From: Actinomycetales bacterium
GTDB lineage: Bacteria > Actinomycetota > Actinomycetes > Actinomycetales > Kineosporiaceae
Assembly (NCBI GenBank): GCA_012719445.1
Contig: JAAYAH010000185.1
Coordinates: 1 to 24,009, forward strand
DNA: 24,009 bases
Direction of reading: 5' to 3'
How positions within the stretch are numbered: the first letter of the stretch is position 1; every line of letters starts with the position of its first letter. Both the position numbers and the translations under genes were made by a program. The notes under the pieces were generated by a model, which saw only the letters and a list, made by a program, of their open reading frames with translations, was not told the origin of the DNA and did not search any database. This document shows positions 214 through 19,291 of the stretch, in pieces.

Positions 214-879
214 CTACGGACCGACCCTGGCCGAGGCCGATCTGGTCCTCGCCCCGCACGGTGATCCGATAGCCGTGTCCAAGAACCCCCGGGCACGGTG
301 GTCCGTCGGCCGTGATGGGTACTGCTTCGCACCGACCGGGTTCCAGCGCACCGCCCGTTCGAAGGCCCCGGACAGGATCCGGTGGATCTGCCGCACCGAT
401 GACGCCGACAACGGGCGGCACTCGTGCCGGCGGCAGCGCTCGTCGCACTCGAGCGCCCGCACCGTCCGGTGCTCGATCGGCTTCACCCGCCCGATGCAGC
501 GCTGCCGGCACCGACGCAGCTGCGCGTAGAACGCGTCAACAACCTCTCCCCCGACCTTGCCGGCCGGCATCGATCCCAGCACCGGCCGGATGTAGCGGTC
601 GATGTAGCCGACGTAGGTCCGTCTGGTGGTCTCCTCGATATCGAGCACCTCCAGGTACCGGTCCAGCAACTGGTTGACCGTGGCCCGGGTCTGGGATTGC
701 GCCGCTCGTCCACCTGGCTCAGCAGCCGGGTGCGAACCTTCTCCGCCTCGGGACCCGCCGGGACGACCTCGCTGAGGTACAGCCGCTGCCGGGTCACCGG
801 ATCCAGACCGGCGCACACCCGCACCCGGAAGGTACCGCCTGGGAACTGGTCGACGCTCCCCCTGGCCCGCCTGCGCCAC
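214..879 (-). pseudogene. Tyrosine recombinase (phage-type integrase) N-terminal fragment; catalytic domain missing or disrupted
   Basis: Residues ~65-185 of the 221-aa ORF (VNQLLDRYLEVLDIEETTRRTYVGYIDRYIRPVLG...IHRILSGAFERAVRWNPV) match the N-terminal SAM-like core-binding domain of actinobacterial phage integrases. No R..HxxR..Y catalytic region follows in any minus-strand frame of 1-213. The gene is co-oriented with, and 150 bp from, the 3' end of tRNA-Met. Confidence 0.5.
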
Positions 880-1029
880 TCCCCTGCCGTGGCCCCGGCA
901 CCACCGTTGCTCCGACTGATGTCATGTTTCGTGTCACGCGGAGATCATCAGAGCCCAGGGCAAGCGATCCAGCTCTCCGCGCTTCTCGCGTTCTCCCAGC
1001 TCAGAGGTGATTTCGCTAGCCGATGATCC

Positions 1030-1106
1030 TGGTGGGGCGGGTGGGGCTCGAACCCACGACCGGCGGATTATGAGTCCGCTGCTCTGACCGGCTGAGCTAC
1101 CGCCCC
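1030..1106 (-). tRNA. tRNA-Met (anticodon CAT; elongator-type G1-C72; could also be a lysidine-modified tRNA-Ile2), CCA encoded
   Basis: Reverse complement reads GGGGCGGTAGCTCAGCCGGTCAGAGCAGCGGACTCATAATCCGCCGGTCGTGGGTTCGAGCCCCACCCGCCCCACCA. It has a 7-bp acceptor stem, D-arm, anticodon loop CT-CAT-AA, GTTCGAG T-loop and a 3' CCA. Confidence 0.85.
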
Positions 1107-1332
1107 GAGCGACGTGCCCGGCACGGCGGGCACCCTGACGCGTACGAACTGTACTCGGGATGCTCGTGCCATAGCGTCACGGACGGCACGAGCATCCCTG
1201 GCACGACGTTGCCGAGACCGGGGTGAGGGGTTGCCCCGTCCCAGTGGGTGCGGAAGCATCGGCGCGATCCGCTCGCCGAGTCCTCTCCGCGTCGGGTCGA
1301 TCCCGATCCGCGCGCGACAGGAGGCCCGCGAC

Positions 1333-2298
1333 ATGCAGGAGCCACCGACGGGAGTTGGAAAGCCCCAGCGACGCGCACATCGGCACGTCGACCGACGAGC
1401 ACGTCGGCGGCGTTGGTGGCTCACCGGAGCGGGCGTGCTCGGCGCCGGCGTCATCGCCGCGCTCGTCGTCACCCAGACCCTCGGCTCGGCCTGCGCCGCC
1501 CCTGGCATGCACGCCGCGTCACGATCCGGGAAGGCCACCTTCTACACGCTGTCCACCGGCACCGGGAACTGCTCGTTCCCTTCGGACGGCGCTGACGGGC
1601 TCTACGTGGCGCTGTCCCCCGGGGAGTACGGTGACGCAGCCGCCTGCGGCAGCTACCTGAGTGTCTCGGGGCCCAGAGGCACAGTGCGGGTGAAGGTCGT
1701 CGACCAGTGCCCCGAGTGCGAGGCCGGCCACATCGACCTGAGTCGGACGGCGTTCGCCCGCATCGGGGATCCCGCGAAGGGCGTGCTCCCGGTGACCTAC
1801 CGTCGTCTGGTCGACCCGCCCCTCCCCGGTCCGCTGAAGGTTCGGGTCAAGGAGGGCTCGTCGCGGTACTGGCTCGCCCTCCTCGTCGACAACACGGGTA
1901 ATCCGCTGTCCCGCATCGAGGTCCGGTCCGGGAGCGGTTCGTGGCAGGTCCTCTCCCGGGCCGACTACAACTACTGGATCGCCGAGAGCGGCGCCGGGGC
2001 AGGTCCCTTCCGGGTCCGGATCACGGACACCCGAGGGCACCGGCTGACTGTGACAGGAATCCGGCTCGCCCCCGGCACGATCCAGTCGACGTCCTCCCGC
2101 ATGTACTCCGCCGGAGGTGGCTCGACGAGCCGGCTGTCGACCTCGACGACGAGGATCACGAGGACGTCCACGACGACCGGGACTCTTCTCTCGACGACCT
2201 CCGTGACCACGCCCGGGACGACGAGCACCTCCTGGCAGACCGACCAGCCGTCGTCCAGCAGTCCGACCGAACCCGCCGTCGTCAGCGACGACTGCTGA
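1333..2298 (+). CDS. Secreted expansin-like protein (EXLX/YoaJ-type): DPBB domain, CBM63-like domain, Ser/Thr-rich C-terminal tail
   Basis: ATG at 1333 sits 9 nt after AGGAGG (1318-1323). A hydrophobic signal/TM segment (WWLTGAGVLGAGVIAALVV) follows. GKATFYTLSTGTGNCSF...GPRGTVRVKVVDQCPECEAGHIDLSRTAF matches the double-psi beta-barrel of expansins/RlpA. RVKEGSSRYWLALLVDNTGNP...YNYWIAESGAG...FRVRITDTRGHRL matches expansin domain 2. The C-terminus is an S/T-rich low-complexity tail ending in Cys. Confidence 0.8.
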   Translation: MQEPPTGVGKPQRRAHRHVDRRARRRRWWLTGAGVLGAGVIAALVVTQTLGSACAAPGMHAASRSGKATFYTLSTGTGNCSFPSDGADGLYVALSPGEYGDAAACGSYLSVSGPRGTVRVKVVDQCPECEAGHIDLSRTAFARIGDPAKGVLPVTYRRLVDPPLPGPLKVRVKEGSSRYWLALLVDNTGNPLSRIEVRSGSGSWQVLSRADYNYWIAESGAGAGPFRVRITDTRGHRLTVTGIRLAPGTIQSTSSRMYSAGGGSTSRLSTSTTRITRTSTTTGTLLSTTSVTTPGTTSTSWQTDQPSSSSPTEPAVVSDDC

Positions 2299-2350
2299 AC
2301 GCCACCGCCCCGGTGCAGGCAGCGGCACGGCAGTGGTGCCCGTCCCCCGC

Positions 2351-2396
2351 GGGGCTCCGAACGAAGCCCCAGCTCCGAACGAAGCCCTCGGAGAGC
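2351..2396. terminator. Two adjacent GC-rich hairpins (tandem 16-bp repeat CTCCGAACGAAGCCC) between the convergent expansin-like and PII genes
   Basis: GGGGCTccgaacgaAGCCCC (2351-2370) and GCTCCGAacgaagcccTCGGAGAGC (2372-2396) lie between the stop codons at 2298 (+) and 2400 (-). Confidence 0.4.
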
Positions 2397-2399
2397 CCG

Positions 2400-2774
<375 letters not shown>

Positions 2775-3312
2775 TCAGGGACGACCCCGGTGGGGGCTGC
2801 GGCCGATGCCGTGACGGCTCCGACCGTCCTCGGCACGCGGACCGTGGGCGGAACGCTGCCATCGTGCTTCCCAGGAGTGACGCCGAAGGCTCCCGCTGAA
2901 GCACCGTGAGCGCGACACCGGTCGAGCGTCATCCTGATAGGTACCACCTCCGAGGGCAGTGTTGGTGGTACGACTCCCGTCATCCGGACGGCGAGCCGTC
3001 GGCCGGTCGTTCCCTGGCCCCCGGGAGGAGCGGCCGGCCGAAGAGATCCGACAGTACTTGCACGCTGCCGGTGAGTACCAGGTTTGTGATCGGTACAGCC
3101 TCCCGGCGGATGGATCCCGGCTGCGAACAGCTCAGCACGACCTCCTACCGGTCGATCCCGGCCCCCGGCCGAGCGGTGCCCGCGGGGTGACGGACGGCGA
3201 GTCCGGGGCCGAACCGCGTCGTCGGGCCCGGCGGGGACGGCAGGAGGCCCCCGGAGCGCTGAGTCCGGGGGCCTACCTCACCATGCGGTGTACGCGCCGT
3301 GGAATCCGCCGA

Positions 3313-4316: not shown

Positions 4317-6404
4317 GCGTTCGCGCAGCTGCCGCCGCTGTCCCTCGGCCTCGGTGATCTCCCGAAGGGTCTCCAGCAGGGCGGGGTCGTCGGGAGCCGT
4401 GCGCTGCATCCGGCTGCGCAGGTTCCCGATGTGCCGGTTGAGCTCGCCCTCCACGACCCGCAGCACGACGGACACGGCGTACCGGGACAGCGCCTCGTCG
4501 TCGTCCGCCGGGAGCGGCGCCACGGCCAGTTCGGTGACCAGCCCGGACACGGTGTCCGGGGCGTTCTCCCGGACGGCGTCGGCCCAGACGTGGGCCGGCA
4601 TCGTCACCGCGGTGGTGAGCCCGCCCGCGGCCCGGATCGCGTGGTGCACCGACCGGTGGGCCGGGACGGCGAAGGCCTGCTCCGAGAGCAGGTCCACGTC
4701 CTCCACCGGCACCAACTCCGGCACCTGGAGCATGCACTCCAGGGCCTCACGCTCCACCCGCGCGACCGGGTCGCGGAGGTCGATCCGGTCCCCCGGCCCT
4801 CCCGAGCCGGACGGGTAACCCTCGACATCTCCCCCCGGACCACCCGCCGCGTCCGGGCCGCCGTTCCGGCCTCTGCCACGGGTCCCCTGGGACGTGGCCT
4901 CCCCGGCCCCCGACGCCGTGGCCGGTCCCCGGGACGATCCTCTTCCCTGGGGCGAGCCCGTCCCGGGGGCGCCGCCACCCCTGGTCTCCGGCCCTCCCGG
5001 CCGGGTACCCGCGCCCGGGAGATCCCCGCCGGGCCTGCCCGCGCTCTCGGCCCCCCCGCTCCCCGCGGCCCGCACCTGGTGCGAGACGGCGCGCAGCACC
5101 GGCTCGACCTCCATCCCGAGCCAGCCGGCGAGCTGCCGGGCGTACTCGGGTCGCAGCGACGCGTCCCTGATCCTGGCGACCATCGGTGCCGCGGCCCGCA
5201 GCCCGCGGACCCGTCCCTCCGGGGAGTCCAGGTCGATCTCCTTCAGGGTGGTCCGGATGGCGAACTCGAACATCCGTTGGCGGCTCTCCACCAGTTCCCT
5301 GACCGCCTCGTTCCCCCGCCGCTGCCGCAGCTCGCAGGGATCCATGCCGTCCCTCGCCACCGCGACGAAGGTCTGCGCGACGAAGCGCTGGTCGTCGGCG
5401 AAGGCTCGCATCGCGGCCTTCTGCCCGGCCGCGTCGCCGTCGAAGGTGAAGATCACCTCCCCATTCCTCGCGCTGTGGTCGCCGAGCAGCCGGCGCACGA
5501 CCCGGATGTGGTCCTCGCCGAACGCCGTCCCGCAGGTCGCCACCGCCGTCTCCACCCCGGCCAGGTGACAGGCCATCACGTCGGTGTACCCCTCGACGAC
5601 GACGACCTGACGCCTCCTGGCGATCTCCCGTTTGGCGAGGTCGACCCCGTAGAGCACCTGGGACTTGCGGTAGAGGGTGGTCTCCGGGGTGTTGAGGTAC
5701 TTCGCCTCGATCCGGTCGTCCTCGAAGATCCGGCGTGCGCCGAACCCCACGACGTCCCCGGTGACGTCCCGGATCGGCCACAGCAGCCGGCCCCGGAACC
5801 GGTCGTACAGCCCCCGTCTGCCCTGTCCTGCCGCCCCCGAGGCGAGCAGCTCGTCCTCGGTGAACCCCCGGCCGCGGAGGTGCCGGAGCAGGGCCTCACC
5901 GGCCCGGGGCGCATAGCCGATGCCGAAGTGCTCGGCGACCTCCCGGTCGAACCCGCGCTCGGTGAGGAACCGGCGGGCGACGTCGGCGTCCCCCGGCGTC
6001 CCGAGCTGCTCCGCGTAGTACGCGGCAGCGACCCGGTTGAGGTCGATCAACCGTTGCCGCTGGCCGACCCGCTCCCTGCGACCGGTCGCGGCTCCCCCGC
6101 CGTCGTCCTCGTACCGGACCTGGTAACCCAGCCGGCTCGCGAGGTGCTCGACGGCCTCCGCGAACCCGAGGTGGTCGATCTTCTGCACGAAGGAGATGGC
6201 GTCGCCGCCCTCACCGCAGCCGAAGCAGTGCCACAGGCCGACGTGCGGCCGGACGTGGATGGACGGCGTCCGCTCGTCGTGGAAGGGACACAGGCCCTTG
6301 AGCGACCCGACCCCCGCGGTCTTGAGCGCCACGTGCTCCCCGACGACCTCGTCGATGCGGGACTGCTCACGGACGTGCTCGACGTCCTCGCGCCGGATCC
6401 TCAT
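4302..6404 (-). CDS. dnaG: DNA primase DnaG (start taken at MRIRREDVEHV; upstream in-frame extension to 6623 unlikely)
   Basis: N-terminal zinc-binding domain (CPFHDERTPSIHVRP...WHCFGCGEGGDAISFV), TOPRIM region (VVVVEGYTDVMA...FDGDAAGQKAA) and a C-terminal helicase-interaction region. A ~110-aa Gly/Pro/Arg-rich low-complexity linker lies near the C-terminus. CAT at 6402-6404 verified. Confidence 0.9.
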   Translation of the reverse strand: MRIRREDVEHVREQSRIDEVVGEHVALKTAGVGSLKGLCPFHDERTPSIHVRPHVGLWHCFGCGEGGDAISFVQKIDHLGFAEAVEHLASRLGYQVRYEDDGGGAATGRRERVGQRQRLIDLNRVAAAYYAEQLGTPGDADVARRFLTERGFDREVAEHFGIGYAPRAGEALLRHLRGRGFTEDELLASGAAGQGRRGLYDRFRGRLLWPIRDVTGDVVGFGARRIFEDDRIEAKYLNTPETTLYRKSQVLYGVDLAKREIARRRQVVVVEGYTDVMACHLAGVETAVATCGTAFGEDHIRVVRRLLGDHSARNGEVIFTFDGDAAGQKAAMRAFADDQRFVAQTFVAVARDGMDPCELRQRRGNEAVRELVESRQRMFEFAIRTTLKEIDLDSPEGRVRGLRAAAPMVARIRDASLRPEYARQLAGWLGMEVEPVLRAVSHQVRAAGSGGAESAGRPGGDLPGAGTRPGGPETRGGGAPGTGSPQGRGSSRGPATASGAGEATSQGTRGRGRNGGPDAAGGPGGDVEGYPSGSGGPGDRIDLRDPVARVEREALECMLQVPELVPVEDVDLLSEQAFAVPAHRSVHHAIRAAGGLTTAVTMPAHVWADAVRENAPDTVSGLVTELAVAPLPADDDEALSRYAVSVVLRVVEGELNRHIGNLRSRMQRTAPDDPALLETLREITEAEGQRRQLRERITGS

Positions 6405-6717
6405 CGCCGCCCCTGCCGGTCCGCGGGCGCTCCCGGCCGACCGGACGCCGTCCGCGGCACCCCGGGCTTCGCGCCCGGCCCCGCTGTCACGTCCACAGGC
6501 GGAGTCTAGGTGCCCGTGGGGTACCGCCGGCTCCGACACCGTCGTCGTCCACAGGCAGGGATCACCCGGCTCCGCGCAGTGACGAGGATCACGCAACGGC
6601 CGTCGGGAGCACCACCGTCCCACCGGCGCGACGACTGATCATCAGGGCGTTGCGGCCCTGTCCGTCGTCGCACGCCGTCCCGGACGTCGGAACGGCCCCT
6701 TCGGCAGAGGAGTTCGC

Positions 6718-8721
6718 GTGGTATCGCGCGATTTGATCATCATTCTGGCCGTCGTACTCGTACTCGTCGTGGTCCTGTTGAAGTCCCTGCACGTCATCGC
6801 AGCCACCGAGGTCGGCCTGGTCACCAAGCGGTTCGGCAGGCGGCTCGGCTCGGACCAGCCGATCGCCTTCCGGGGCGAGGCCGGATACCAGGCGAAGCTG
6901 CTCATGCCGGGGCTGCGTTTCAAGCTCTGGCCGGTCTTCTCGGTCTCCAAGCACCCCTGGGTGCAGATCCCGGCGGGCGAGATCGGGGTGGTCATCGCCC
7001 AGATCGGCGCACCGCTGCCGATCGGCGCGAAGACCGCCGAGTACCGGCCCGAGTTCGCCAACTTCACGGACCTGACGGTCTTCCTGGCCGAGGGCGGCCA
7101 GAAGGGCATCCAGCGGCCGGTGTTGCCCCCCGGGACCCTGCTCCCGCTGCACCCGGTCGCCTTCCTCGTCCTCACCGCCGGGCGGGTCTACGGCCTGCCG
7201 GTCTCCAGCAACGTCGACCGCCGCAAGCCGCTGACCCCGCAGACCTTCGGGCTCACCCCCGAGCACCTCAGGGTGACCGTGGTCGCCCCGCAGGGCTGGC
7301 AGGACGTCGTCGGCATCGTCACCACCCTTGAGGGACCGGCTCCCGAGGCAGGGGACATCGCCAGCAGGCTCGGCGGGTACGCGGACATCGCGGCTCTTGA
7401 GGAGAGCGGTGCGGGTGACGCCGAGAAGATCGAGGCGATCCTGGCGTCCAAGAACGGGCTGCACAACAACTACCAGGACTACCAGGCCTTCCTCGACCAC
7501 GGCGGACGGATCGGCCTCCAGCACGACCCGCTGCTGTACGGGTCCTACCTGCTCAACCCGTTCCTGGTGCGGGTGGAGTTCGTGCCGATGCTCGTGGTCC
7601 GGCAGGGTGAGGTCGCCGTCGTGAAGTCCTACGTCGGCCTGCCCACCGTGGACACCTCGGGGCAGGAGTTCAAGTTCGGCTCCATCGTCCGCCCGGGGCA
7701 CCGGGGGATCTGGAACGAGCCGCTGCGCACCGGCAAGTACTCGATCAACCCGCGCCTGTACGCCGCGGAGATCGTCCCCACCTCGATCCTCACCCTCAAC
7801 TGGGCCAACCAGAGCTCGCAGGCGCACAACCTCGACGCGATGCTCAGCCCGATCGACGGCAAGTCCCGCGAGGGCTTCGTCTTCGGGATCGACCTCCAGG
7901 TCCAGATCCACGTGCCCGACTCCAGGGCACCGAAGGTGATCTCGATGGTGGGCACCATGCAGAACCTCGTCAACGAGGTGCTGCAGTCGGCCGTGGGCAA
8001 CTACTTCCGCAACGTGCTGCAGCAGCTCCCGGCCGTCCAGTTCATCGAGACGCGGGACGCCGTGCAGAACCACGCGCAGGAGTACATCACCGGGTACCTC
8101 GGCAAGTACGAGGTCGAGACCAAGGGCGTGTACATCCAGGACGTCGTGTTCCTGCCGGAGCTGGTCACCGTGCTCACCCAGCGCGAGATCGCCAACCAGG
8201 AGCGCTCGACGTTCGAGGAGCAGCAACGGGCCCAGATCGTCCGGGTCGACCTGGAGAAGGCGCGCGGCACCGCCGACATGCAGGCCGAGCTGGCCAAGGC
8301 CAACGTCAATGTCGACATCCAGAAGGCCGCTGCCGCCGCGAGAACGGCCGAGGCCGAGGGCGTCTCGGCGTTCACCCGGATGACGGGCCAGGCCGAGGCC
8401 GACAAGACGCAGGCGATCGGCCTGGCCCAGGCGAAGGCCGTCGAGGCGCTCGGGGTGGCCAAGGCCAAGGGGTACGAGGCCCAGGTCACGGCCCTCGGCC
8501 AGCAGGCCACCGCCGCGGTCGCGGTGGCGGGCGCGGTGGCCGACGGCCAGATCAAGATCGTTCCCGAGGTCATGGTCTCCGGGAGCGACGGCAACGGCGC
8601 CTTCACCGGACTCGCCGCAGCTCTCACCGGATCCCTCAGGGACTGGACACCGGGACGGACCGACGCCGAGGAGCGTCCCGCGGCGAACGGACGCACCGGA
8701 GCCGACGGATCCGCCGCTTGA
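6718..8721 (+). CDS. Flotillin-like SPFH/band-7 membrane protein (YqiK/FloT family), 667 aa
   Basis: GTG start after GAGGAG. N-terminal TM helix (LIIILAVVLVLVVVLL), SPFH domain, then a long Ala/Glu/Gln-rich coiled-coil tail (QERSTFEEQQRAQIVRVDLEKARGTADMQAELAKANVNVDIQKAAAAARTAEAEG...) typical of flotillins. Confidence 0.8.
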   Translation: MVSRDLIIILAVVLVLVVVLLKSLHVIAATEVGLVTKRFGRRLGSDQPIAFRGEAGYQAKLLMPGLRFKLWPVFSVSKHPWVQIPAGEIGVVIAQIGAPLPIGAKTAEYRPEFANFTDLTVFLAEGGQKGIQRPVLPPGTLLPLHPVAFLVLTAGRVYGLPVSSNVDRRKPLTPQTFGLTPEHLRVTVVAPQGWQDVVGIVTTLEGPAPEAGDIASRLGGYADIAALEESGAGDAEKIEAILASKNGLHNNYQDYQAFLDHGGRIGLQHDPLLYGSYLLNPFLVRVEFVPMLVVRQGEVAVVKSYVGLPTVDTSGQEFKFGSIVRPGHRGIWNEPLRTGKYSINPRLYAAEIVPTSILTLNWANQSSQAHNLDAMLSPIDGKSREGFVFGIDLQVQIHVPDSRAPKVISMVGTMQNLVNEVLQSAVGNYFRNVLQQLPAVQFIETRDAVQNHAQEYITGYLGKYEVETKGVYIQDVVFLPELVTVLTQREIANQERSTFEEQQRAQIVRVDLEKARGTADMQAELAKANVNVDIQKAAAAARTAEAEGVSAFTRMTGQAEADKTQAIGLAQAKAVEALGVAKAKGYEAQVTALGQQATAAVAVAGAVADGQIKIVPEVMVSGSDGNGAFTGLAAALTGSLRDWTPGRTDAEERPAANGRTGADGSAA

Positions 8722-11495: not shown

Positions 11496-11630
11496 GCCCC
11501 CCCCGGAACCACTCCCGCTGTCACGGATCGTGATCTCGGCGATCGCGTGACCGCGCAGGCCACCGGGAGACCACTCCCGCTGTCACGGATCCAGCGACCG
11601 ACCCCGTATCGGAGTCCCTTTTCGATACCC
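11496..11630. promoter_or_regulatory. Regulatory-looking intergenic block with a C8 homopolymer, two perfect 21-bp direct repeats and a short palindrome
   Basis: C8 homopolymer at 11497-11504. Two perfect 21-bp direct repeats CCACTCCCGCTGTCACGGATC at 11509-11529 and 11571-11591 (62-bp period). Small palindrome GTATCG-11nt-CGATAC at 11606-11628. The block lies between divergent dus (start 11443, -) and operon gene 1 (start 11687, +). Confidence 0.5.
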
Positions 11631-11686
11631 TGCGTGTCGCCGGTCGTGGCAGCACGGGGATGCACCGAGGACGACCAGGGGGACGC

Positions 11687-11974
11687 GTGGCAGATCTGAA
11701 CATCGACACGGCAGTACTACGGGAGGCCGGCGCGCAACTGCGGATTGTCGCCACCGAGTTCGTCCACGCCAACGTGCGCAGCGACGACGTGGCCGAAGCC
11801 GTCGGGCACGATCGACTCGCCGAGCGGATCCGCGACTTCGCCCACAACTGGGACGACAAGCGGGAGCAGATGGTCGAGGGTGTCGGGCAGCTCGCCGAGA
11901 TCGCCAGCGGGGTCGGTGAGGTCTTCGAACAGGTGGAGACCGAGTTCGTCAAGGCCCTGGAGGGCGGGTCGTGA
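11687..11974 (+). CDS. Small (~95 aa) all-helical protein with a central W-x-D turn; WXG100/Lap-like candidate; first gene of the six-gene operon
   Basis: GTG at 11687 with GGGGGA RBS 4-10 nt upstream (alternative ATG at 11660). VADLNIDTAVLREAGAQLRIVATEF...FAHNWDDKREQMVEGVGQLAEIASGVGEVFEQVETEF. The stop TGA overlaps the gene 2 GTG (GTGA at 11971-11974). Confidence 0.55.
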   Translation: MADLNIDTAVLREAGAQLRIVATEFVHANVRSDDVAEAVGHDRLAERIRDFAHNWDDKREQMVEGVGQLAEIASGVGEVFEQVETEFVKALEGGS

Positions 11975-13473
11975 GCCGCCCGATCGACTGGACACCGCTG
12001 GGCCGCTCCCGCGACCCCGTCCCCGGCGATCCGTTGGTCGTCGAGACGACGGGCAGGCACTACCAGGAGGTGGCCCAGACCATCACCACGGCAGCCGAGC
12101 GGCTGCGAAGGATCGCCGATCACGAGCAGATGACCAGCAAGGCCGTCGAAGCCTTCCGGGAGAAGGCCGAGCAGGTCGCCACCGACATCCAGAAGGCCCA
12201 CCAGCGATATCAGGCCGTCGGCGATGCTCTGGTCACCTACGCCGCCCACCTCTCCGATGCCCAGGACACCTCCGTCGAGGCGTTGACCAAGGCTCGGGTC
12301 GCCGAGACCGACAAGCAGCTCGCCGACCGCAAGGCCGAGACCGCCCGCACCGCCGCCGAGACCGCGACCGACCCCGACACCCGCGCCGTCCAGGAGGCCG
12401 CTGCCCGACAGGCCGAGGACGACGTCGCAGCCGCCGAGCGGGAACTCGCCCGGGCCACCGGCCTGCTCGCCACCGCGATCGAGCTCCGCGACCGCGCCGC
12501 GACCGCCGCCATCGCCCTCATCGACCCCGCCCTGAGCAGCGGCGGACTGACCGACAACTGGTGGGACGACTGGGGTCGGGTCACCGTCCAGTGGATCTCC
12601 AAGATCTCCGGGGCAGTGGCCGCCGTCTGCGGCATCCTCTCCCTGGTCGTCGGCTGGATCCCTGTCATCGGCCAGGCCCTAGCCGCGATCCTCGGCACCA
12701 TCGCCCTCATCGCCTCGATCATCTCCCTGCTGGCAAACCTCACCCTGGCGCTGACGGGCGACGGCAGCTGGTCGGCCGTCGTCCTCGACGTCATCAGCGT
12801 CGCCACCTTCGGCCTGGGCCGGGTAGCCAGCGCGTCCGCGCGGCTGAGCTTCCAAGGAGCCAAGGGCTCGGCACGGCTCGCGGCGGGACGTCTCGCAGCA
12901 CAATCCCCTGGAGTGCGTTCTGCACTCGGTCTCCCGGCCAACGCCTCGGCCAGGGAGGTTATCCGCAGGTTACTGAAATCAGACGATCTTGCAGCACTCA
13001 GCCGGAGATCAGCACGACGAATGGCCAAGAACGCGAACCGTCATGGCCGGATCTTCTCCGCATCCAGCACCTCACGCTCGCTCAGCTCCATCGGGACGGA
13101 CTTCACCGACTCATTGCGCACGGTATCCCAGAGAACCAGTTGGAACAACATCGTCAGCAAGACCCGAACCGAGTTCAGCGAAATCGTCGATCTGGCGCGG
13201 TCTCAACAATTCATGCCCGCTCTCGACCGCGCACTGGGGGAAGCAGGAATCGCCACTGATTTCCAAACGCTCAGCAGAATGGAGACGTCGCTACTCGGAC
13301 AGACGGAGGTGAGCACCTCGATCAGCAGGGCCGTTTCCAGTAACCGCACGTTTTTCTTGTCCACAGCTATCAGCGCTGGAGTTGACTCCTACCAGTTGGT
13401 AGCCACAGGGTCCGGTTCCCAAGAGAACGGTCCCGCGCAGCTACACGTCCCGGTGCCAACAGGATCGCGATGA
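11971..13473 (+). CDS. 500-aa membrane protein: N-terminal ~215-aa helical domain, 2-3 TM helices, C-terminal ~175-aa domain encoded in lower-GC DNA; candidate polymorphic-toxin-like protein
   Basis: N-terminus MSRPIDWTPLGRSRDPVPGDPLVVETTG... is followed by long A/E/R/T-rich helices. TM block ISGAVAAVCGILSLVVGWIPVIGQALAAILGTIALIASIISLLANLTLAL. GC drops from ~70% to ~50-55% from ~12950 (about aa 325) to the stop. The stop overlaps the next start (ATGA). Confidence 0.65.
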   Translation: MSRPIDWTPLGRSRDPVPGDPLVVETTGRHYQEVAQTITTAAERLRRIADHEQMTSKAVEAFREKAEQVATDIQKAHQRYQAVGDALVTYAAHLSDAQDTSVEALTKARVAETDKQLADRKAETARTAAETATDPDTRAVQEAAARQAEDDVAAAERELARATGLLATAIELRDRAATAAIALIDPALSSGGLTDNWWDDWGRVTVQWISKISGAVAAVCGILSLVVGWIPVIGQALAAILGTIALIASIISLLANLTLALTGDGSWSAVVLDVISVATFGLGRVASASARLSFQGAKGSARLAAGRLAAQSPGVRSALGLPANASAREVIRRLLKSDDLAALSRRSARRMAKNANRHGRIFSASSTSRSLSSIGTDFTDSLRTVSQRTSWNNIVSKTRTEFSEIVDLARSQQFMPALDRALGEAGIATDFQTLSRMETSLLGQTEVSTSISRAVSSNRTFFLSTAISAGVDSYQLVATGSGSQENGPAQLHVPVPTGSR

Positions 13474-14075
13474 CTTTCAACGACACCTGTCCACACAAGC
13501 AAGCACTCGTCGGATACCGCCTGAGTGCACCAGCGAGTTGGGCGGCACTCCCCCTGGAAGGCGAATCCGGGTGGGTGGACGAGGTTATAGCACTGCTGGC
13601 TCCCCGTCCCGAGACAAGGGCGACACTGCGGCAAGATCTCCAACTGGTTCATCGCGCACTGAACTCTGAGCAACACCTCGGAATCGGCGCGTGGATGCCG
13701 TTCCCCGAGACCGGGTCAGTGTTAGGTGCCATGGCCGTCGACTTGATGATTCCGAACGAGGGATCCGGAAAAGCCGTGGACATCGACGAGTACCGCGAGT
13801 TACTCGCCACCGTCAAACGGCAGGGAGTAAGGGTCATCTCACGGGAAATCTTCCGGGACACCGTGAACGCTGGTCCTTGCCTCACCGCCAGAGAGACAGT
13901 CATGATGGATCGGAGAGTCGTCGAGTACCATGTGGTCTACTCCGTTTTCCCACTGGACTCCTGCGATGCCATTGAACTCACATTCTGCACCCCCCATCTC
14001 GAACTCGCAGCAGCCCTCGACACCGACAGCCGACTGATAGCTGACTCGCTCACCTTGTCAACAGGTGAACGATGA
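13470..14075 (+). CDS. Hypothetical soluble protein, 201 aa (paralog A of a tandem pair), low-GC
   Basis: ATGA-coupled to both neighbours. Shares with the next gene an N-terminal L-x-L/S-P-A-x-W-x-x-x-P-L motif and a C-terminal (L/E)L(T/C)F(C/S)TP...L(E/D)...(L/I)...S(L/V) motif. Confidence 0.6.
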   Translation: MTFNDTCPHKQALVGYRLSAPASWAALPLEGESGWVDEVIALLAPRPETRATLRQDLQLVHRALNSEQHLGIGAWMPFPETGSVLGAMAVDLMIPNEGSGKAVDIDEYRELLATVKRQGVRVISREIFRDTVNAGPCLTARETVMMDRRVVEYHVVYSVFPLDSCDAIELTFCTPHLELAAALDTDSRLIADSLTLSTGER

Positions 14076-14743
14076 TCAATACCTTCCGCGTATCCGGCCA
14101 TCAGCTGGACCTCGTTCTTCCGGCTACCTGGGTAACCATCCCCCTGCAACCGCAGAGCGTGCGGGCCCGAGATGTGCGGATTCTCGTCCAACGCCAGTTC
14201 CGGGGGGTCGACAACCAACCGCTGCTCCGAACCGAGACGGAACACCAACTCCTTGTGTCCGCTGACCGCGCAGCTGATGCAGGAGCCGACTTCCTCGCCC
14301 TGTCCCTCATGCAGGTCGCCGGTGTGCCCATCCCGGCCTCCATGGTTGCTCACTCGATTCCACTGGAGTCGGGTGACCCTAGAGAGAGCACCGGGTGTCT
14401 CGCTGTCCTCGATCGCATCATAGAAAGTCTCGGTGATGTCGAGAGCCAGCATCCCGCAGCCCGACTCGCCCGCGGCAGGGTGGCAGCGGGGGATGTGCTT
14501 CGTAGAGTCGCCCACCGCCCTGGTCATGGCATCGAGGGCTCAGATCCGCCCACGGTGATCGTCGCGGACTACTGGCTCCCTTGGCCAGACGACCATGGCA
14601 CCGCGCTCCTGTGCTTCTCTACCCCGCTGACCACACACCAGGAACCCATGCTCGAACTCTTCGACGCCATCGTGGAGAGCGTTCACTGGACCTCACCCGG
14701 TGATTCGGAGGACATTGATCCAGAGGAGATCCGTGACCGCTGA
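14072..14743 (+). CDS. Hypothetical soluble protein, 223 aa (paralog B of the tandem pair), intermediate GC
   Basis: ATGA-coupled upstream. Shares motifs with the 201-aa protein (LDLVLPATWVTIPL ; ALLCFSTPLTTHQEPMLELFDAIVESV). Confidence 0.6.
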   Translation: MINTFRVSGHQLDLVLPATWVTIPLQPQSVRARDVRILVQRQFRGVDNQPLLRTETEHQLLVSADRAADAGADFLALSLMQVAGVPIPASMVAHSIPLESGDPRESTGCLAVLDRIIESLGDVESQHPAARLARGRVAAGDVLRRVAHRPGHGIEGSDPPTVIVADYWLPWPDDHGTALLCFSTPLTTHQEPMLELFDAIVESVHWTSPGDSEDIDPEEIRDR

Positions 14744-15974
14744 TTCCGACCAGATACACCGAGACGACAGCCCGAACGGGTCGGCTGAGCTGGCCCCGAT
14801 GTCCCCCACCAGGCCGTCGGTTGCTGACTGCGCGCGCCTCGTTGCCGCTCCGGGAACCATCATCATCGACCTACCGGGGCGTGATCGGCGCGAGTTCCGA
14901 GTACCCGAGGACGCGTCAGCCGCTGGAGTCATCAAGGGCCATTCCAGCTCATATTTCGTGTTAACAACGTCCTTGGGCAGGCCCGTCGCAGCATTCCCCA
15001 TGACAGAATGGGTCCCACCCGGCGAACTCATAAACTTCGATCTTCTCACCTCACGCAATACAAACGGGCGAGCACGAGCTCACCTACCTTGGCCGCTCGA
15101 CGAGTTCATCTCGACCGGAGGTCTGGATTCGTCACCGGTTGTTATTTCGGATACCCCTCCCGAGTGCGAGATACACCGGGTCATCCCACCCAGCCGTGCC
15201 GGCGCCATCTCGTTTGTTCTATCCTTCTTCGGCCCGATCCTTCTTCTCGTTTCGATTCTCATCACAGAATTCCTCGCATCACTGCTGGAAAACAGGGGGA
15301 TCACCAACGCAGTCAGCCCAATCGCTTTCACCCTTATCACCTCGTCTGTCATCGCCCAAGCCGGTGCATTGGGTGCCGTCTGGCACATCACGTATTCACA
15401 TACATCACCTCCCCGAGGAATGCAACCCAGGACACTCCAACCAATTCCCGATCACCCGCTCCCCCGACTGTTCACCCGATCAGCAAGCATTCAGATCGAC
15501 GACATGGGGACATTGGTGAGTGATGTCGACCGAATGGCGATCCGATTCCCGACGCGAGGTATCGTCGCGATCACGAATTGGGTCGTTCACACCGACAAGG
15601 GATCACCAGTATCACTGGATCTCTGCGCTGGAGACCGCTGCCTTGTCCGACTGCCCTGGTCCGATTGGTTCCCCGATACGTCTATGGATCACATCACGAA
15701 AGCACTGCGCCTGCAACCAGAGCTGCGACCTGCGGAAAAACAGGGGACTGTCATCTCACCTCAAGTCGTCAATGACAGGAAACCCACCGTCGGCCCGGAT
15801 CTCAGGTTGACGGTGCTCATGCTTCTGACCTGCTCACTGGCTTTCATGTCGGCTGTCGGTTACTCGCCCGGACTCGCAACCGTGACACGCATCTCGAGTG
15901 GAGGTGCCATAGCCCTGATCCTCTCGTTCCATGCCCTCGCAACAGTCCTCATCAAGTGGGGCGAGCGTTCTTGA
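14700..15974 (+). CDS. Four-TM membrane protein P1 (~415-424 aa), low-GC copy of a tandem paralog pair; start may be GTG 14700 or the in-frame GTG at ~14734
   Basis: N-terminal soluble domain (EWVPPGELINFDLLTS...HLPWPLDEFIS), TM pair (AISFVLSFFGPILLLVSILITEFLASLL ; VSPIAFTLITSSVIAQAGALGAVW), a middle domain (RLPWSDWFPDTSMDHITKALRLQPE) and a C-terminal TM pair. It overlaps the upstream stop, and its stop overlaps the next start. Confidence 0.65.
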   Translation: MIRRTLIQRRSVTADSDQIHRDDSPNGSAELAPMSPTRPSVADCARLVAAPGTIIIDLPGRDRREFRVPEDASAAGVIKGHSSSYFVLTTSLGRPVAAFPMTEWVPPGELINFDLLTSRNTNGRARAHLPWPLDEFISTGGLDSSPVVISDTPPECEIHRVIPPSRAGAISFVLSFFGPILLLVSILITEFLASLLENRGITNAVSPIAFTLITSSVIAQAGALGAVWHITYSHTSPPRGMQPRTLQPIPDHPLPRLFTRSASIQIDDMGTLVSDVDRMAIRFPTRGIVAITNWVVHTDKGSPVSLDLCAGDRCLVRLPWSDWFPDTSMDHITKALRLQPELRPAEKQGTVISPQVVNDRKPTVGPDLRLTVLMLLTCSLAFMSAVGYSPGLATVTRISSGGAIALILSFHALATVLIKWGERS

Positions 15975-17269
15975 CTCCCCGGAGACCCGAGACGCCTGTC
16001 TCCGACCTCTCGGACCTGCCAGCTACGCAGAGCCGTACCGCTGCCGCGCCCGCCCGGGTCGAGTTGGTTCCCTTCGCACCCGCCGATCCCGAGGTGGCCC
16101 GTTCCACCTTCCTCGTCGCGACTCCCGAGGAGATCACCCTCGTCACCTCGTGGCGGCAGCCGCGCACCTGGCAGGTCGGCCGGGACGTCAGCAGCTACAC
16201 GATCCACACCGACCTCCGGCACAACATGCCGCCCTACCTGCTCGTCCTCCTCGACGACGCCGGAGCCCCCGTCGCCTCGCTCCCGCTCCGGGACTGGGTT
16301 CCCGAGGGGGAACTGCTCGCGCACGACCTCTTCATCCAGCCGGAGACGCGGCGTCGGACCGGCTCCCGGATGCCGTGGCCCCTGGACTCGTTGGTGGCCG
16401 CCGCCGGGCTCTCCCCGTACCGCGGGGATCACCTGGACGACAACGCCGTGGACCGCGCCCGGGAGCAGTGGGCTCCCCCGACTCCCGCCAGCACGTGGGT
16501 GCTCGTGCTCGGCATGCTCGCACCGGGCATCTGGCTCCTGACCGCGATCCTCATCGGGGCCGTGGCTGTCGTCCTCGACGCGCGAGGTCTCGTCGATGTC
16601 GCCGGAGTGCTGGCGTTGGCGTTCCTCGGGCTGGCCTGTGCCGTCCCCCTGCACCAGCTGAACCGGCTTCGCCGGCTCGCTCGCCCCCGGCCTGCCGAGG
16701 GAGTGCCGGACGGCGCCCGGGTACTGCGACCCGTTCCGGGGCGGGCTGTGTCCCGCCAGTTCTCCGCGACGTCCTGGCTGGCCGTGACCGGGGACGGGGT
16801 GGTCCTGCACGCGCCGGACGGCCGGGAGCTCGTGTTCCCGTCGGCCGGTCCCACCGCCGTCACCCGGTGGACGGTCGCGCGGGATGGGGACCGGCCCACC
16901 TTCCTCGACCTGTATGCAGGGAGGCACCACCTGACTCGTCTGGCCTGGGACGACTGGTTCCCCGACGGCTCGACCGAGCACCTGCGACAGGCGCTCGGCA
17001 TCATCCCCCAGCCGAGCGACACCACCGCCGACCCCGCGACGCTGCCGTGGCGGCTCGACGACTCCTGCTCCGCTGGTGACACCGGGCTCGTTCTCGCCCT
17101 GCCGTCGCTGATCACCTGTCTCGTCGTGGCCCTGTCCGTCAGGCTCTACTCGACGCCCCTCGCCTGGACGGTGGGGATCAGCTGCGCGCTCACGGTCCTC
17201 GTGGTGACGGGCACACACTGGCTCGGCTGGCGGGTCCAGCGGGATCGGGAGCCGACACCACAGTGGTGA
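15956..17269 (+). CDS. Four-TM membrane protein P2 (~432-437 aa), high-GC paralog of P1; start GTG 15956 or TTG 15971 (TTGA overlap with the P1 stop)
   Basis: Clear homology to P1 across all blocks (DWVPEGELLAHDLFIQ...MPWPLDSLVA ; RLAWDDWFPDGSTEHLRQALGIIPQ) with the same 2+2 TM topology, but ~70% GC versus ~52% for P1. Confidence 0.65.
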   Translation: MGRAFLTPRRPETPVSDLSDLPATQSRTAAAPARVELVPFAPADPEVARSTFLVATPEEITLVTSWRQPRTWQVGRDVSSYTIHTDLRHNMPPYLLVLLDDAGAPVASLPLRDWVPEGELLAHDLFIQPETRRRTGSRMPWPLDSLVAAAGLSPYRGDHLDDNAVDRAREQWAPPTPASTWVLVLGMLAPGIWLLTAILIGAVAVVLDARGLVDVAGVLALAFLGLACAVPLHQLNRLRRLARPRPAEGVPDGARVLRPVPGRAVSRQFSATSWLAVTGDGVVLHAPDGRELVFPSAGPTAVTRWTVARDGDRPTFLDLYAGRHHLTRLAWDDWFPDGSTEHLRQALGIIPQPSDTTADPATLPWRLDDSCSAGDTGLVLALPSLITCLVVALSVRLYSTPLAWTVGISCALTVLVVTGTHWLGWRVQRDREPTPQW

Positions 17270-17388: not shown

Positions 17389-19029
17389 CTAGACCGCCGT
17401 GCTGTCCGACGCCAGCACCGACCCGTACCTCGTGCCTGTGATGTTCCCCGTGGACAGGGTGACCTCGGTGGGGTCGACGATCTCGAACCCCGCGAAGACC
17501 CGGATGTACACCAGCCCGGCGTCCGCGACTCCGCCGACGTCCTGGCCGGGGACGGCGACCTGTGGGTCCCACGCCCCGGTCCCGACCAGGCGCGCCGACA
17601 GAGTCGCACCGAGCCGGTCACCGGCCTCCGGGGTCCCTGACAGGCCGTCTCCCTGGGTGAACCGGACCGCCTCTGGATCGCAGCCCTTCCGGTTCGTGTA
17701 GCGCCCGAGGCAGTCGAGGCGGAGGTGGTACACCGCTCCGGCGTCGGTGACCGGCCCGACGTCCTCACCAGGAGCGCCGACGACCAGACCGGCGGTCTGC
17801 CGCTCGTAGCTGTCGAGTTCCCCGTTGAATGCTGTCGCGGCCCCGAACGCGTCACCGCGCTCGGCGGTCCCTGGGATGCCACCGGTGCCCTCTGCCAGGG
17901 TGGCCCGGTAGCTGAAGGCGCTCTCCTCCAGCGGGTCGAACCCGAACAGCTCGACCGTGCCGGCCTCACGGGCGCCACCGACGTCCTCGCCCGGCACGCC
18001 GACGGCCAGCAGCTCGGAGTCGGCCGCGACAGAGGCCCCGAACCGGTCACCCCGCTCGGCGCGCCCCGGGGTCTTCGCGCTGTCCTGGGAGACGCGCTGC
18101 GCGGCGGACACGGAGCCCTCCTCCGAGTCGACGAACAGAACCGCGACCGAGCCGGCGTCGTCCGCGGTACCGACGTCATCGTGCGGAACGCCGACGACCA
18201 GCACCGTCGGCGCCTGTTCGTCGTCGACCATCTCCGGGTCGTACTCGTCGGCCGCCCCGAGGATCTCGCCGAACCGGTCGCCCGCCTCGGCCCGGTCCCC
18301 CCGGCCCTCGCCCGCCGGCACCGGGTCGTCCAGGGTGATGGTTCCCAGATGGGTGACGTCGACCGGCCTGCCGTGGCGCCCGGGGGCGTCCAGCCGGAAG
18401 TGCTCGACGGCCCCCGCGTCCACCAGCCCTCCGACGTCCCGCCCCGGGGCACCGATCCACAGGTCGAGGACTCCCTCCAGCCGTTCCCTCGGTCGGGTGC
18501 GCCTGGTCACCGCGACAGCCGCGCCGAACTCGTCACCGGGTGCGCCGGTCGGTGCGCTGACCGGAACGGTCGCGGTCCCGAAGCCCTCGGCGGAGTTGCG
18601 GGTGAGGAACACCCGGCCGGCCCCGTCCGCGCCCGGGGCGCCGATCACCAACGACGGGCAGTCGCTGCCGTCGAGGTCCGTGATGAGCACGGCGGCTCCG
18701 AGCCGATCGGTCACCGCGCCCGCGCCAGCGCCGATCGAGGACCGGGTCAGCAGTCGGGTGCCGGTCTCCTCGAGCCGCACGTCGACCGCGCCCCGTCCCT
18801 CCCCGTGCCCGGGGAGGCCGACGGCGACGTCGTCCGCGCCGGCGGCACAGGCCTCCACGGCGGTCCCTGCGGTGGCCGCTGTCGTGGACCCGGTGCTCGC
18901 CGCACCGCCGGTGCCCCCGCCACCGGAACAACCCGCGATCCCACCCGCGACCAGCCCCGTCACCAGCACGGCCGCGAGCGCGACCGAGGGTCTCGTCACC
19001 GGGGTCCCGCACCGGATCATCGCTCGCAT
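17389..19029 (-). CDS. Secreted lipoprotein with FG-GAP / integrin-alpha-like beta-propeller repeats (start probably MRAMIR at 19029; ORF open to 19122)
   Basis: Signal peptide plus lipobox (LVAGGIAGCSGG). At least five repeats of the form G(A/V)PGxDVGGxxDAGAVxxF (e.g. VAVPGQDVGGVADAGLVYI, GAPGEDVGPVTDAGAVYHL, VGVPGEDVGGAREAGTVELF). Confidence 0.75.
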   Translation of the reverse strand: MRAMIRCGTPVTRPSVALAAVLVTGLVAGGIAGCSGGGGTGGAASTGSTTAATAGTAVEACAAGADDVAVGLPGHGEGRGAVDVRLEETGTRLLTRSSIGAGAGAVTDRLGAAVLITDLDGSDCPSLVIGAPGADGAGRVFLTRNSAEGFGTATVPVSAPTGAPGDEFGAAVAVTRRTRPRERLEGVLDLWIGAPGRDVGGLVDAGAVEHFRLDAPGRHGRPVDVTHLGTITLDDPVPAGEGRGDRAEAGDRFGEILGAADEYDPEMVDDEQAPTVLVVGVPHDDVGTADDAGSVAVLFVDSEEGSVSAAQRVSQDSAKTPGRAERGDRFGASVAADSELLAVGVPGEDVGGAREAGTVELFGFDPLEESAFSYRATLAEGTGGIPGTAERGDAFGAATAFNGELDSYERQTAGLVVGAPGEDVGPVTDAGAVYHLRLDCLGRYTNRKGCDPEAVRFTQGDGLSGTPEAGDRLGATLSARLVGTGAWDPQVAVPGQDVGGVADAGLVYIRVFAGFEIVDPTEVTLSTGNITGTRYGSVLASDSTAV

Positions 19030-19291
19030 CGCCTCGTCCTCACCTCGGGAACCCACCCGGTGCAGGACCAGCGCGGGACTGGGCACCCCTGGGAACCGCG
19101 CACGGGCAGGACACGCTGTCACCGGGATGATCGCGATTCGGGTGGCACCGTTACGTGAGGTCGGTCACGCGAGGTGGCGCTGGGGACCGGTCAACGGGAC
19201 GGCGTCCTGCGAGTGGCCGGGTGCACCCCGGCCGCTCACGGTCTCAGGCGGGTCAGCGGTCGCGGGGCGGGTCAGCGGTCGCGGACCGGGA

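Follow-up and report, generated by a model that had tools for sequence, protein, structure and literature searches.

The window analyzed here, i.e., the whole stretch of 24,009 nucleotides from an Actinomycetales bacterium (assembly GCA_012719445.1, contig JAAYAH010000185.1), contains an operon of six co-directional, overlapping genes, referred to as G1 to G6, at positions 11687-17269 of the + strand. Judged from the encoded proteins and from the organization of related loci, the operon appears to be an effector cassette of an ESX-type T7SS (type VII secretion system) and a member of a widespread, apparently uncharacterized actinomycete family; the probability of this reading is estimated to be about 55%. 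An earlier note on the same DNA had proposed a polymorphic T7SS effector locus of LXG or TspA type, in which arrays of paralogous immunity genes follow the toxin gene. The polymorphic-effector part of that proposal is broadly right, while G3 and G4 are more likely to be chaperone-like than to be immunity proteins.

The central component is G2 (11971-13473, + strand; 500 residues), which is composed of an N-terminal domain, a hydrophobic module and a C-terminal tail. The N-domain (residues 1-190; 11971-12540, +) is a helical targeting domain with an invariant DPVPGD motif, and its residues 17-188 match the Pfam family PF21725, T7SS_signal (“Putative T7SS secretion signal domain”), at 36.8 bits (E = 5.3e-9), i.e., above the curated gathering cut-off of 27 bits. 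This match bears out the targeting domain predicted in the earlier note and at the same time removes its statement that none of the six proteins matches a named family. In the AlphaFold model of G2, which is all-helical with a mean predicted local distance difference test score (pLDDT) of 82, the N-domain is a long three-helix structure (pLDDT 87-98) that superposes on the mycobacterial proteins PPE15, PPE41 and PPE4 at 2.6-3.0 Å over ~150 residues and also on EsxA structures. The similarity to PPE proteins is one of fold only, as the hidden Markov models (HMMs) of PPE (PF00823) and PE (PF00934) yielded no match for G2, G1 or the G1 relatives; the LXG domain (PF04740) has no match in G2 at E<=1. 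The 72 G2 homologs are nearly all 450-520 residues long, and residues W7, P16, P18, G19 and D20 of the segment IDWTPLG...DPVPGDP, which had been singled out from the letters, are invariant among the relatives.

The N-domain is followed by the hydrophobic module (residues ~195-290; 12553-12840, +), where three helices are predicted around a near-invariant VGWIPVIGQALA turn. The two to three transmembrane helices suggested previously are found both in the hydropathy profile, as a hydrophobic stretch at residues 208-264, and in the structural model, where the helices extend over residues 195-227, 233-261 and 267-309. This module is the best-conserved part of G2, with a mean identity to the reference of 77% at residues 221-240 around GWIPVIGQ (69 relatives), and G221, L225, W229, P231, G234 and Q235 are invariant among the relatives. 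Assignment of the module to the PT-TG pre-toxin domain was considered and rejected, as there was no Pfam match. The remaining part of the protein, the C-terminal tail (residues 291-500; 12841-13473, +), is all-helical with eight to ten helices in the model, rich in Arg, Ser, Thr and Ala, carries a net charge of ~+12 and is weakly conserved.

A homolog of G1 (11687-11974, +) is located directly upstream of 93 of 103 G2-like genes. The window's own gene encodes 95 residues from a GTG start that follows AGGGGGA, and an ATG at 11660 would extend the product to 104 residues. In the segment FAHNWDDKR, residues F51, W55 and R59 are invariant among relatives (FAxxWDxxR, with a central Trp), such that the HNWDD turn noted previously is a trait of the whole family. 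The T7SS export motif has the form YxxxD/E. At the corresponding C-terminal [YF]xxx[DE] motif of the G1 family, 22 of 24 relatives have F or Y at position 80, and all 24 have D or E at position 84; in the window the motif has F, not Y, and the turn reads WDD, not WxG. Comparison of the 24 relatives with Pfam gave sub-threshold matches throughout, to EspC (15/24, best 3.9e-5), DUF6317 (14/24), WXG100 (8/24, best 1.5e-3) and WXG100_2 (4/24). A sequence-profile search of the PDB with G1 returned only weak matches to EspB and to designed helices, at E >= 0.04, and homology between G1 and the first helices of G2 was not significant (probability 16%). On the basis of the relatives' matches and the motif, G1 is taken to be a probable two-helix hairpin of the EsxAB/WXG100 clan and a PE/EspC-like partner of the PPE-like N-domain of G2, in line with the small WXG-like partner proposed before. 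The closest parallels are the mycobacterial PE-PPE and EspB-EspC pairs: G2 resembles PPE15, PPE41 and PPE4 in the fold of its N-domain, and G1 resembles PE and EspC as a ~95-residue hairpin with a C-terminal [YF]xxx[DE] motif, encoded by a gene that is adjacent to, and translationally coupled with, that of G2.

A scan of 185,579 species genomes, with one genome per species, yielded 242 confirmed relatives, all in Actinomycetes, with hosts among Streptomyces, Nocardioides, Cellulomonas, Georgenia, Pseudonocardiaceae, Microbacteriaceae, Propionibacteriaceae and Pauljensenia. The set of G1, G2 and a G3/G4-type gene was found in more than 80 independent actinomycete loci (individual loci are given below by L numbers), a recurrence that rules out a chance arrangement. 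T7SS components are found beside the module in Pauljensenia hongkongensis (L067), where a bona fide WXG100 gene (39.6 bits vs 27.3) precedes G1-G2 and a gene for a 1458-residue FHA + FtsK_SpoIIIE (EssC-type) ATPase is located 3 kb downstream. Some G2 relatives are named “putative T7SS-secreted protein” in NCBI records. Within the 24-kb window itself, no T7SS core genes were found.

The relatives also reveal what may follow the hydrophobic module. Proteins of ~1500 residues encoded in L005, L025 and a further three Streptomyces loci have the same N-domain and hydrophobic module as G2, and in the two that were scanned against Pfam (L005 and L025) the module is followed by DUF6531 and Rhs repeats. 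The relatives P0045 and P0058 are 93% identical over residues 21-290, after which there is no similarity. One of their tails looks HNH-like (EADHIVPY...N...N) and the other looks like a restriction-endonuclease fold (PD...DVK), a distinction based on sequence motifs, as neither tail has a Pfam match. Because of the Rhs carriers and this exchange of tails, the N-domain and hydrophobic module together are considered to be a portable cassette with interchangeable payloads. An apparently orphan copy of the P0045-type tail is also seen in the set of loci L067, L081 and L084, which have in common downstream paralogs of ~260-290 residues, and in the Pauljensenia loci the downstream genes are linked to the payload.

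The composition of the window's DNA changes at the same point of G2. The GC content, ~0.72 in the flanks, is 0.56-0.64 between roughly 12800 and 16000. The in-frame GC content at third codon positions (GC3) is ~0.9 over codons 1-285 of G2, drops sharply at codon ~286, remains at ~0.55-0.8 from the G2 tail through G3, G4 and G5 (0.64 in G5) and is back at ~0.9 in G6 after codon ~40, again with a sharp border. From this profile, a native origin is suggested for G1, G6 and codons 1-285 of G2, and a foreign one for the G2 tail, G3, G4 and G5, which agrees with the compositionally foreign C-terminus that had been reported for G2. The low-GC3 block (12830-16050, +; ~3.2 kb) also includes the first ~30-40 codons of G6, and its left border coincides with the residue at which the similarity of P0045 and P0058 ends (~290). 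The block is read as a probable replacement of one cassette by another through recombination.

The two soluble proteins encoded next, G3 (13470-14075, +; 201 residues) and G4 (14072-14743, +; 223 residues), lack a signal peptide and have no family match at the sequence level. They display no similarity to each other by BLASTP, but are remote paralogs by profile comparison with hhalign (97.2%, E 3e-11, 178 columns), and iterated HMMs started from either protein converge on the same open reading frames (ORFs); the pair of diverged soluble paralogs recognized earlier is hence real. The structural model of G4 is confident and has a Mog1/PsbP-like alpha/beta fold, with fold-comparison scores of 11.3 for PsbP, 10.9 for LpqN and 10.8 for Mog1, of 11.0 and 9.9 for the immunity proteins TplEi and Tsi3 of the T6SS (type VI secretion system), and of 9.9 and 8.8 for the T6SS chaperones EagT6 (1tu1) and SciW.

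Among the 93 G2-like genes with enough flanking DNA for a count, exactly two G3/G4-family genes are found beside 64 and at least one beside 85. The gene order varies, whereas the set of genes stays the same: G1-G2-G3-G4 in the window, Nocardioides and Pseudonocardiaceae, G4-G1-G2-G3 in most Streptomyces (with a G4-type gene upstream of G1), G1-G2-G5/6-G4-G3 in some Streptomyces, and G1-G2-G4-G3 or G1-G2-G5/6-G3-G4 on metagenome contigs, where a scan with a narrower G4 alignment returned 9 loci. The pair is also found behind the Rhs-type protein of L005. With identities of 27-45%, G4 can be recognized in most of the 80 loci, and it is conserved to about the same degree as the N-domain and hydrophobic module; G3 is detectable, at ~21-42% identity, in nearly the same loci as the window's tail (L001-L009, L019 and L035). 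From this distribution it is concluded that G3 and G4 probably constitute a fixed accessory pair rather than a variable immunity array, and a chaperone role for the hydrophobic module, by analogy with the T6SS, is the best fit.

This analogy refers to the Eag proteins, DUF1795 chaperones that are encoded upstream of their effector and, as dimers, bind its transmembrane helices; 1TU1 is apo-EagT6, and the known pairs of prePAAR effectors and Eag proteins include EagT6-Tse6, SciW-Rhs1 and EagR1-RhsA (PMC7773334). The likeness comprises the fold of G4, the location of its gene near that of an effector with hydrophobic helices and, in Streptomyces, the position of the G4-type gene upstream, as is the case for eag genes. 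The systems also differ. Eag proteins belong to the T6SS, whereas the operon is related to the T7SS of a Gram-positive bacterium and has neither PAAR nor prePAAR. Furthermore, G3 and G4 have no DUF1795 sequence match, are ~200-220 residues long and would act as a diverged paralog pair instead of a homodimer. A functional parallel within the T7SS is offered by Ltc/DUF4176 proteins, cytoplasmic chaperones specific for T7SSb LXG toxins, which bind the region between the targeting and toxin domains (PMC12478183). Here the concept of a chaperone acting on the middle region is the same, but the fold and family differ from those of G3/G4, and the segment to which the Ltc/DUF4176 proteins bind is an amphipathic helix that is disordered instead of a transmembrane module.

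The last two genes encode paralogous membrane proteins, as had been noted, i.e., G5 (14700-15974, +; 424 residues, with possible starts also at 14715 or 14733) and G6 (15956-17269, +; 437 residues, possibly from a TTG at 15971), which are 28% identical over ~390 residues (E 2e-43). According to hydropathy, each is composed of a ~165-residue soluble domain, a hydrophobic hairpin, a ~140-residue soluble domain and a second hairpin, and a cytoplasmic location of both soluble domains is suggested by the Arg-rich loops that follow helix two. In Pfam there was no match, DUF443 included, for either protein or for ten relatives, and G5/G6 had no match in the PDB; a word-indexed homolog search with both proteins returned only the window's own G6. 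Of the 80 genome loci, 11 have divergent homologs that are recognized by a G5+G6 profile, as do 3 metagenome loci; all of these homologs lie within G1-G2 modules and have W-x-P and W..WF motifs in common. The possibility that the soluble domains are related to G3/G4 was rejected (hhalign probability 0.2%). The G5 copy lies in the foreign block and G6 in native DNA, an arrangement that resembles the orphan downstream genes kept in Pauljensenia loci. Assignment of G5 and G6 as membrane immunity proteins is plausible but weakly supported.

The public annotation of G6 (P0086, 391 residues) starts at GTG 16094 and thereby drops residues that are conserved with G5 (ELVPFAPADPEV vs ELAPMSPTRPSV). In the alignment with G5, the first aligned residue of G6 is residue 36, which lies upstream of the start chosen in the annotation, and the longer ORF (start at 15956 or 15971) is more likely. 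Small ORFs of 120-190 residues with 3-4 predicted transmembrane helices are found between or just after G3/G4-type genes, both in loci without G5/6 (L002 13328-13828, L004 8751-9218, L007 12670-13032 and L008 12670-13041) and in loci with G5/6 (L013 14380-14886 and L076 14179-14739). Judging from their hydropathy, these could be alternative membrane immunity genes.

Taken as an effector cassette, the operon could function as follows. The G1 hairpin would pair with the PPE-like N-domain of G2 into a helical bundle that is recognized by the T7SS ATPase. The three-helix hydrophobic module would serve as a generic membrane-insertion or translocation device that brings a payload into or across the target membrane, where the payloads would be Rhs cages and two unrelated nuclease-like tails in relatives and the basic helical tail in the window. 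The cytoplasmic G3/G4 pair would keep the hydrophobic module, perhaps also the tail, soluble before export, in an Eag/DUF1795-like manner, and G3 may instead, or also, neutralize the tail. Among the encoded proteins, G5 and G6, as polytopic membrane proteins with cytoplasmic domains, would be the first choice for conferring immunity to a payload that acts on membranes. In the window, recombination immediately behind the hydrophobic module would have brought in the tail, G3, G4 and G5 together as a single foreign cassette, with the resident G6 staying behind as an orphan copy. The operon may then be an actinomycete T7SS counterpart of the T6SS scheme of transmembrane effectors and Eag chaperones, with a portable cassette, a Mog1/PsbP-fold heterodimer as chaperones, interchangeable payloads and immunity through G5/G6; this complete picture is tentative, with odds clearly short of even.

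A number of observations weigh against an effector cassette or against parts of this scheme. The window's own G1 has no Pfam match at E<=1, and its relatives match only below threshold. Even at E<=5, Pfam gives no match for the G2 tail, which belongs to no known toxin family, and within its own subgroup only the Arg-rich juxtamembrane stretch at residues 296-349 is conserved, with no conserved polar or catalytic positions beyond it. A search of 1.84 billion representatives returned 17 matches to the tail, which with few exceptions occupy the equivalent position in ~500-residue proteins of like architecture or belong to shorter sequences, for which reason the tail was rejected as a shuffled toxin domain. 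With no Pfam match, 17 relatives and a single conserved stretch, the window's tail is not a recognizable or widely shuffled toxin domain. The swappable toxin module postulated in the earlier note therefore holds for the family, on account of P0045 and P0058, but not for the tail at hand. In 43 Streptomyces loci, conservation extends over all four genes of the module and over the tail as well, as in an ordinary set of orthologs, with mean pairwise identities of 0.80 for G1, 0.74 for the G2 N-domain, 0.84 for the hydrophobic module, 0.74 for the tail, 0.74 for the upstream G4-like gene and 0.65 for the downstream paralog. The variable C-terminus expected previously is thus seen in P0045/P0058, while the tail is conserved at ~74% across these 43 Streptomyces species, which for this clade is an outcome that the earlier note had itself listed as speaking against its proposal. 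As to G3 and G4, the Mog1/PsbP fold is found also in Tsi3, TplEi and many unrelated proteins; a Pfam comparison of 14 members of the G4 family gave no match, DUF1795 included, and the PDB sequence-profile search with G4 yielded nothing of significance; G3 evolves as fast as the G2 tail and tracks it in detectability, which fits an immunity role; and Pauljensenia and Propionibacteriaceae loci have the hydrophobic module without the G3/G4 pair, from which it follows that the pair is not obligatory for the module. The chaperone role is unproven for these reasons, i.e., because the fold serves immunity proteins too, because G3 tracks the tail and because some loci lack the pair. Finally, most loci lack G5/G6, which makes their assignment to immunity a weak one.

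Some of these observations fit an alternative that is closer to the earlier note, in which G2 is a TspA-type membrane-depolarizing polymorphic toxin, G3 and G4 are soluble immunity paralogs and G5 and G6 tandem TsaI-like immunity proteins. Like TspA-TsaI of S. aureus (PMC7456083) and pore-forming LXG toxins of TelE type, the operon encodes a helical N-domain of T7SS type, a C-terminal part that is hydrophobic or amphipathic, a polymorphic tail and, downstream, duplicated polytopic membrane proteins. TspA has tandem polytopic immunity genes (PMC7456083), and G5/G6 are duplicated at the cassette border. Furthermore, G3 is encoded directly downstream of G2 and its divergence parallels that of the tail, the downstream paralog in Streptomyces evolves faster than the upstream one (0.65 vs 0.74 mean identity), and L002 holds five G3/G4-type genes for one G2. 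On the other hand, G2 has neither an LXG domain nor a colicin-like match, G5/G6 have no DUF443 match, and their topology differs from that of TsaI, which has five helices, in that four transmembrane helices are predicted, together with two cytoplasmic domains of large size; the host of TspA is Staphylococcus, while the operon resides in an actinomycete (T7SSa-type). The kinship with LXG and TspA-TsaI that had been proposed does not stand for these reasons. In addition, G3 and G4 occur as a fixed pair with one of each, also beside an Rhs-type effector with a different payload, and the Streptomyces G4-type gene is upstream and conserved like the targeting domain. T6SS immunity proteins with the Mog1/PsbP fold act in the periplasm, whereas G3 and G4, without a signal peptide, are cytoplasmic. 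Most loci also lack G5/G6. Of the immunity arrays proposed earlier, the duplicated membrane proteins at the cassette boundary are retained, while G3/G4 remain a fixed pair across payload types. Altogether the TspA-type explanation is considered unlikely, at about one chance in a handful.

Less probable still is an explanation, given as the alternative in the earlier note too, in which the operon is no weapon and G1-G4 form a T7SS-dependent physiological membrane system of the envelope or of development, with G2 anchored in the producer and G5/G6 as accessory partners. The 65-84% identity of the four genes in 43 Streptomyces species, with a tail as conserved as the N-domain, would be expected for such a system, the tail has neither a toxin family nor a catalytic motif, and the Arg-rich stretch that directly follows the hydrophobic helices is compatible with a membrane protein that resides in the producer with its tail in the cytoplasm. 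However, the distribution is patchy, with the 242 relatives scattered over the genomes scanned, several modules may be stacked in one locus, Rhs toxins have the same N-terminal cassette, and there is a clean exchange of tails on 93%-identical N-parts, together with orphan tail modules and the foreign cassette of the window. Modularity, stacking and patchiness count against this explanation because they are typical of conflict systems. That short forms of G2 are themselves non-toxic and, once in the target membrane, serve other T7SS effectors, e.g., an adjacent Rhs protein, as a pore or conduit agrees with the presence, in four or more Streptomyces species (L025, L057, L063 and L066), of divergent Rhs-type proteins with the same cassette next to the module and with a highly conserved hydrophobic module next to a weakly constrained distal tail, but is very improbable, as the structural matches to IpaB lie among many generic helical bundles, the Rhs proteins own a hydrophobic module and there is no second effector in the window.

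With an effector cassette as the favored reading, several features of the related loci deserve description in their own right. In four Streptomyces species, the ~1500-residue proteins are encoded next to the four-gene module in divergent orientation, all on the - strand (L025 2436-6974, L057 2381-7000, L063 2433-6995 and L066 844-5457), and no G1-like gene of their own was detected. In Streptomyces, diverged modules may be stacked: L062 has four G1-G2 pairs within ~12 kb, and L043, L051 and L073 have two full modules in opposite orientation together with a third G1-G2-like pair. These stacked loci include a class of shorter G2-like proteins (400-450 residues, E ~1e-25), often without G3/G4 neighbors. 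In L020, two S8 subtilases with proprotein-convertase P-domains (786-3266 and 6139-8532) flank a Streptomyces type A module, and L016 has ORFs that match these subtilases in size and position. In L067, an ORF 3' of the G2 homolog (11600-13624) crosses a long N-masked stretch and ends in a 65%-identical copy of the HNH-like P0045 tail; this ORF, behind which lies a paralog of the downstream family of ~270 residues, is an orphan tail module or else the gene of a second effector.

In the window, all six ORFs and the overlap junctions described in the earlier note were confirmed from the sequence. The junctions are GTGA at 11971-11974 (G1/G2), ATGA at 13470-13473 (G2/G3) and ATGA at 14072-14075 (G3/G4). 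The G4 stop is at 14741-14743, downstream of the candidate G5 starts GTG 14700, TTG 14715 (after GGAGGA) and GTG 14733 (after GAGGAG), and the G5 stop at 15972-15974 overlaps the G6 ORF, with candidate starts at GTG 15956 and TTG 15971, the latter giving TTGA. Scans of the operon for promoters, terminators and repeats gave nothing above expectation, and NCBIfam gave no usable match for any of the six proteins. The operon is bracketed by housekeeping genes, with dus, a dGTPase-like gene and dnaG, which are on the opposite strand, at one side, and genes for an FG-GAP protein, glycyl-tRNA synthetase and recO at the other. The FG-GAP repeat protein (17389-19122, -; 577 residues) is convergent with the end of G6 and has an N-terminus that resembles a lipoprotein signal (…LVAGGIAGCSGG).

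Further away, ~3 kb upstream of the operon, a 667-residue protein with an SPFH/Band 7 (flotillin-like) domain is encoded at 6718-8721 (+); flotillin scaffolding has reportedly been linked to T7SS assembly in a study of S. aureus, and the proximity may be a coincidence. A bacterial expansin-like protein of 394 residues with DPBB_1 and Expansin_C domains is encoded at 1114-2298 (+). The sole match of the ORF at 214-879 (-), near the contig end, is to a phage-integrase N-terminal SAM-like domain (24.3 bits vs 22.6), and this ORF may be an integrase remnant or fragment.

With regard to current annotation, PF21725 describes the N-domain that G2 has in common with the actinobacterial Rhs toxins of related loci, and covers that domain only; the hydrophobic module, the G1 family, G3/G4 and G5/G6 are without a family model. 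A search of the literature found no paper that mentions PF21725 or T7SS_signal, and in the literature on T7SS with DUF1795-type chaperones and on Streptomyces T7SS substrates no description of the module was found. How T7SS toxins cross the membrane of the target cell is an open question (PMC7456083), and actinobacterial T7SSa antibacterial effectors are barely characterized relative to those of Bacillota. The locus family offers a testable candidate in this respect, i.e., a conserved membrane module between a targeting domain and interchangeable payloads, and this module and its Eag-fold partners suggest, by analogy, how T7SS effectors may stay soluble and then insert into target membranes. 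If the proposed scheme is correct, a delivery module and a class of chaperones would for the first time be defined for antibacterial effectors of the T7SSa, and two secretion systems would have reached the same solution for the export of hydrophobic effectors. The new families (the G1-type partner, G3/G4 and G5/G6) would then allow annotation of hundreds of genomes of Streptomyces, Nocardioides, Cellulomonas and related organisms, and would provide handles for new toxin and immunity domains in antibiotic-producing actinomycetes.

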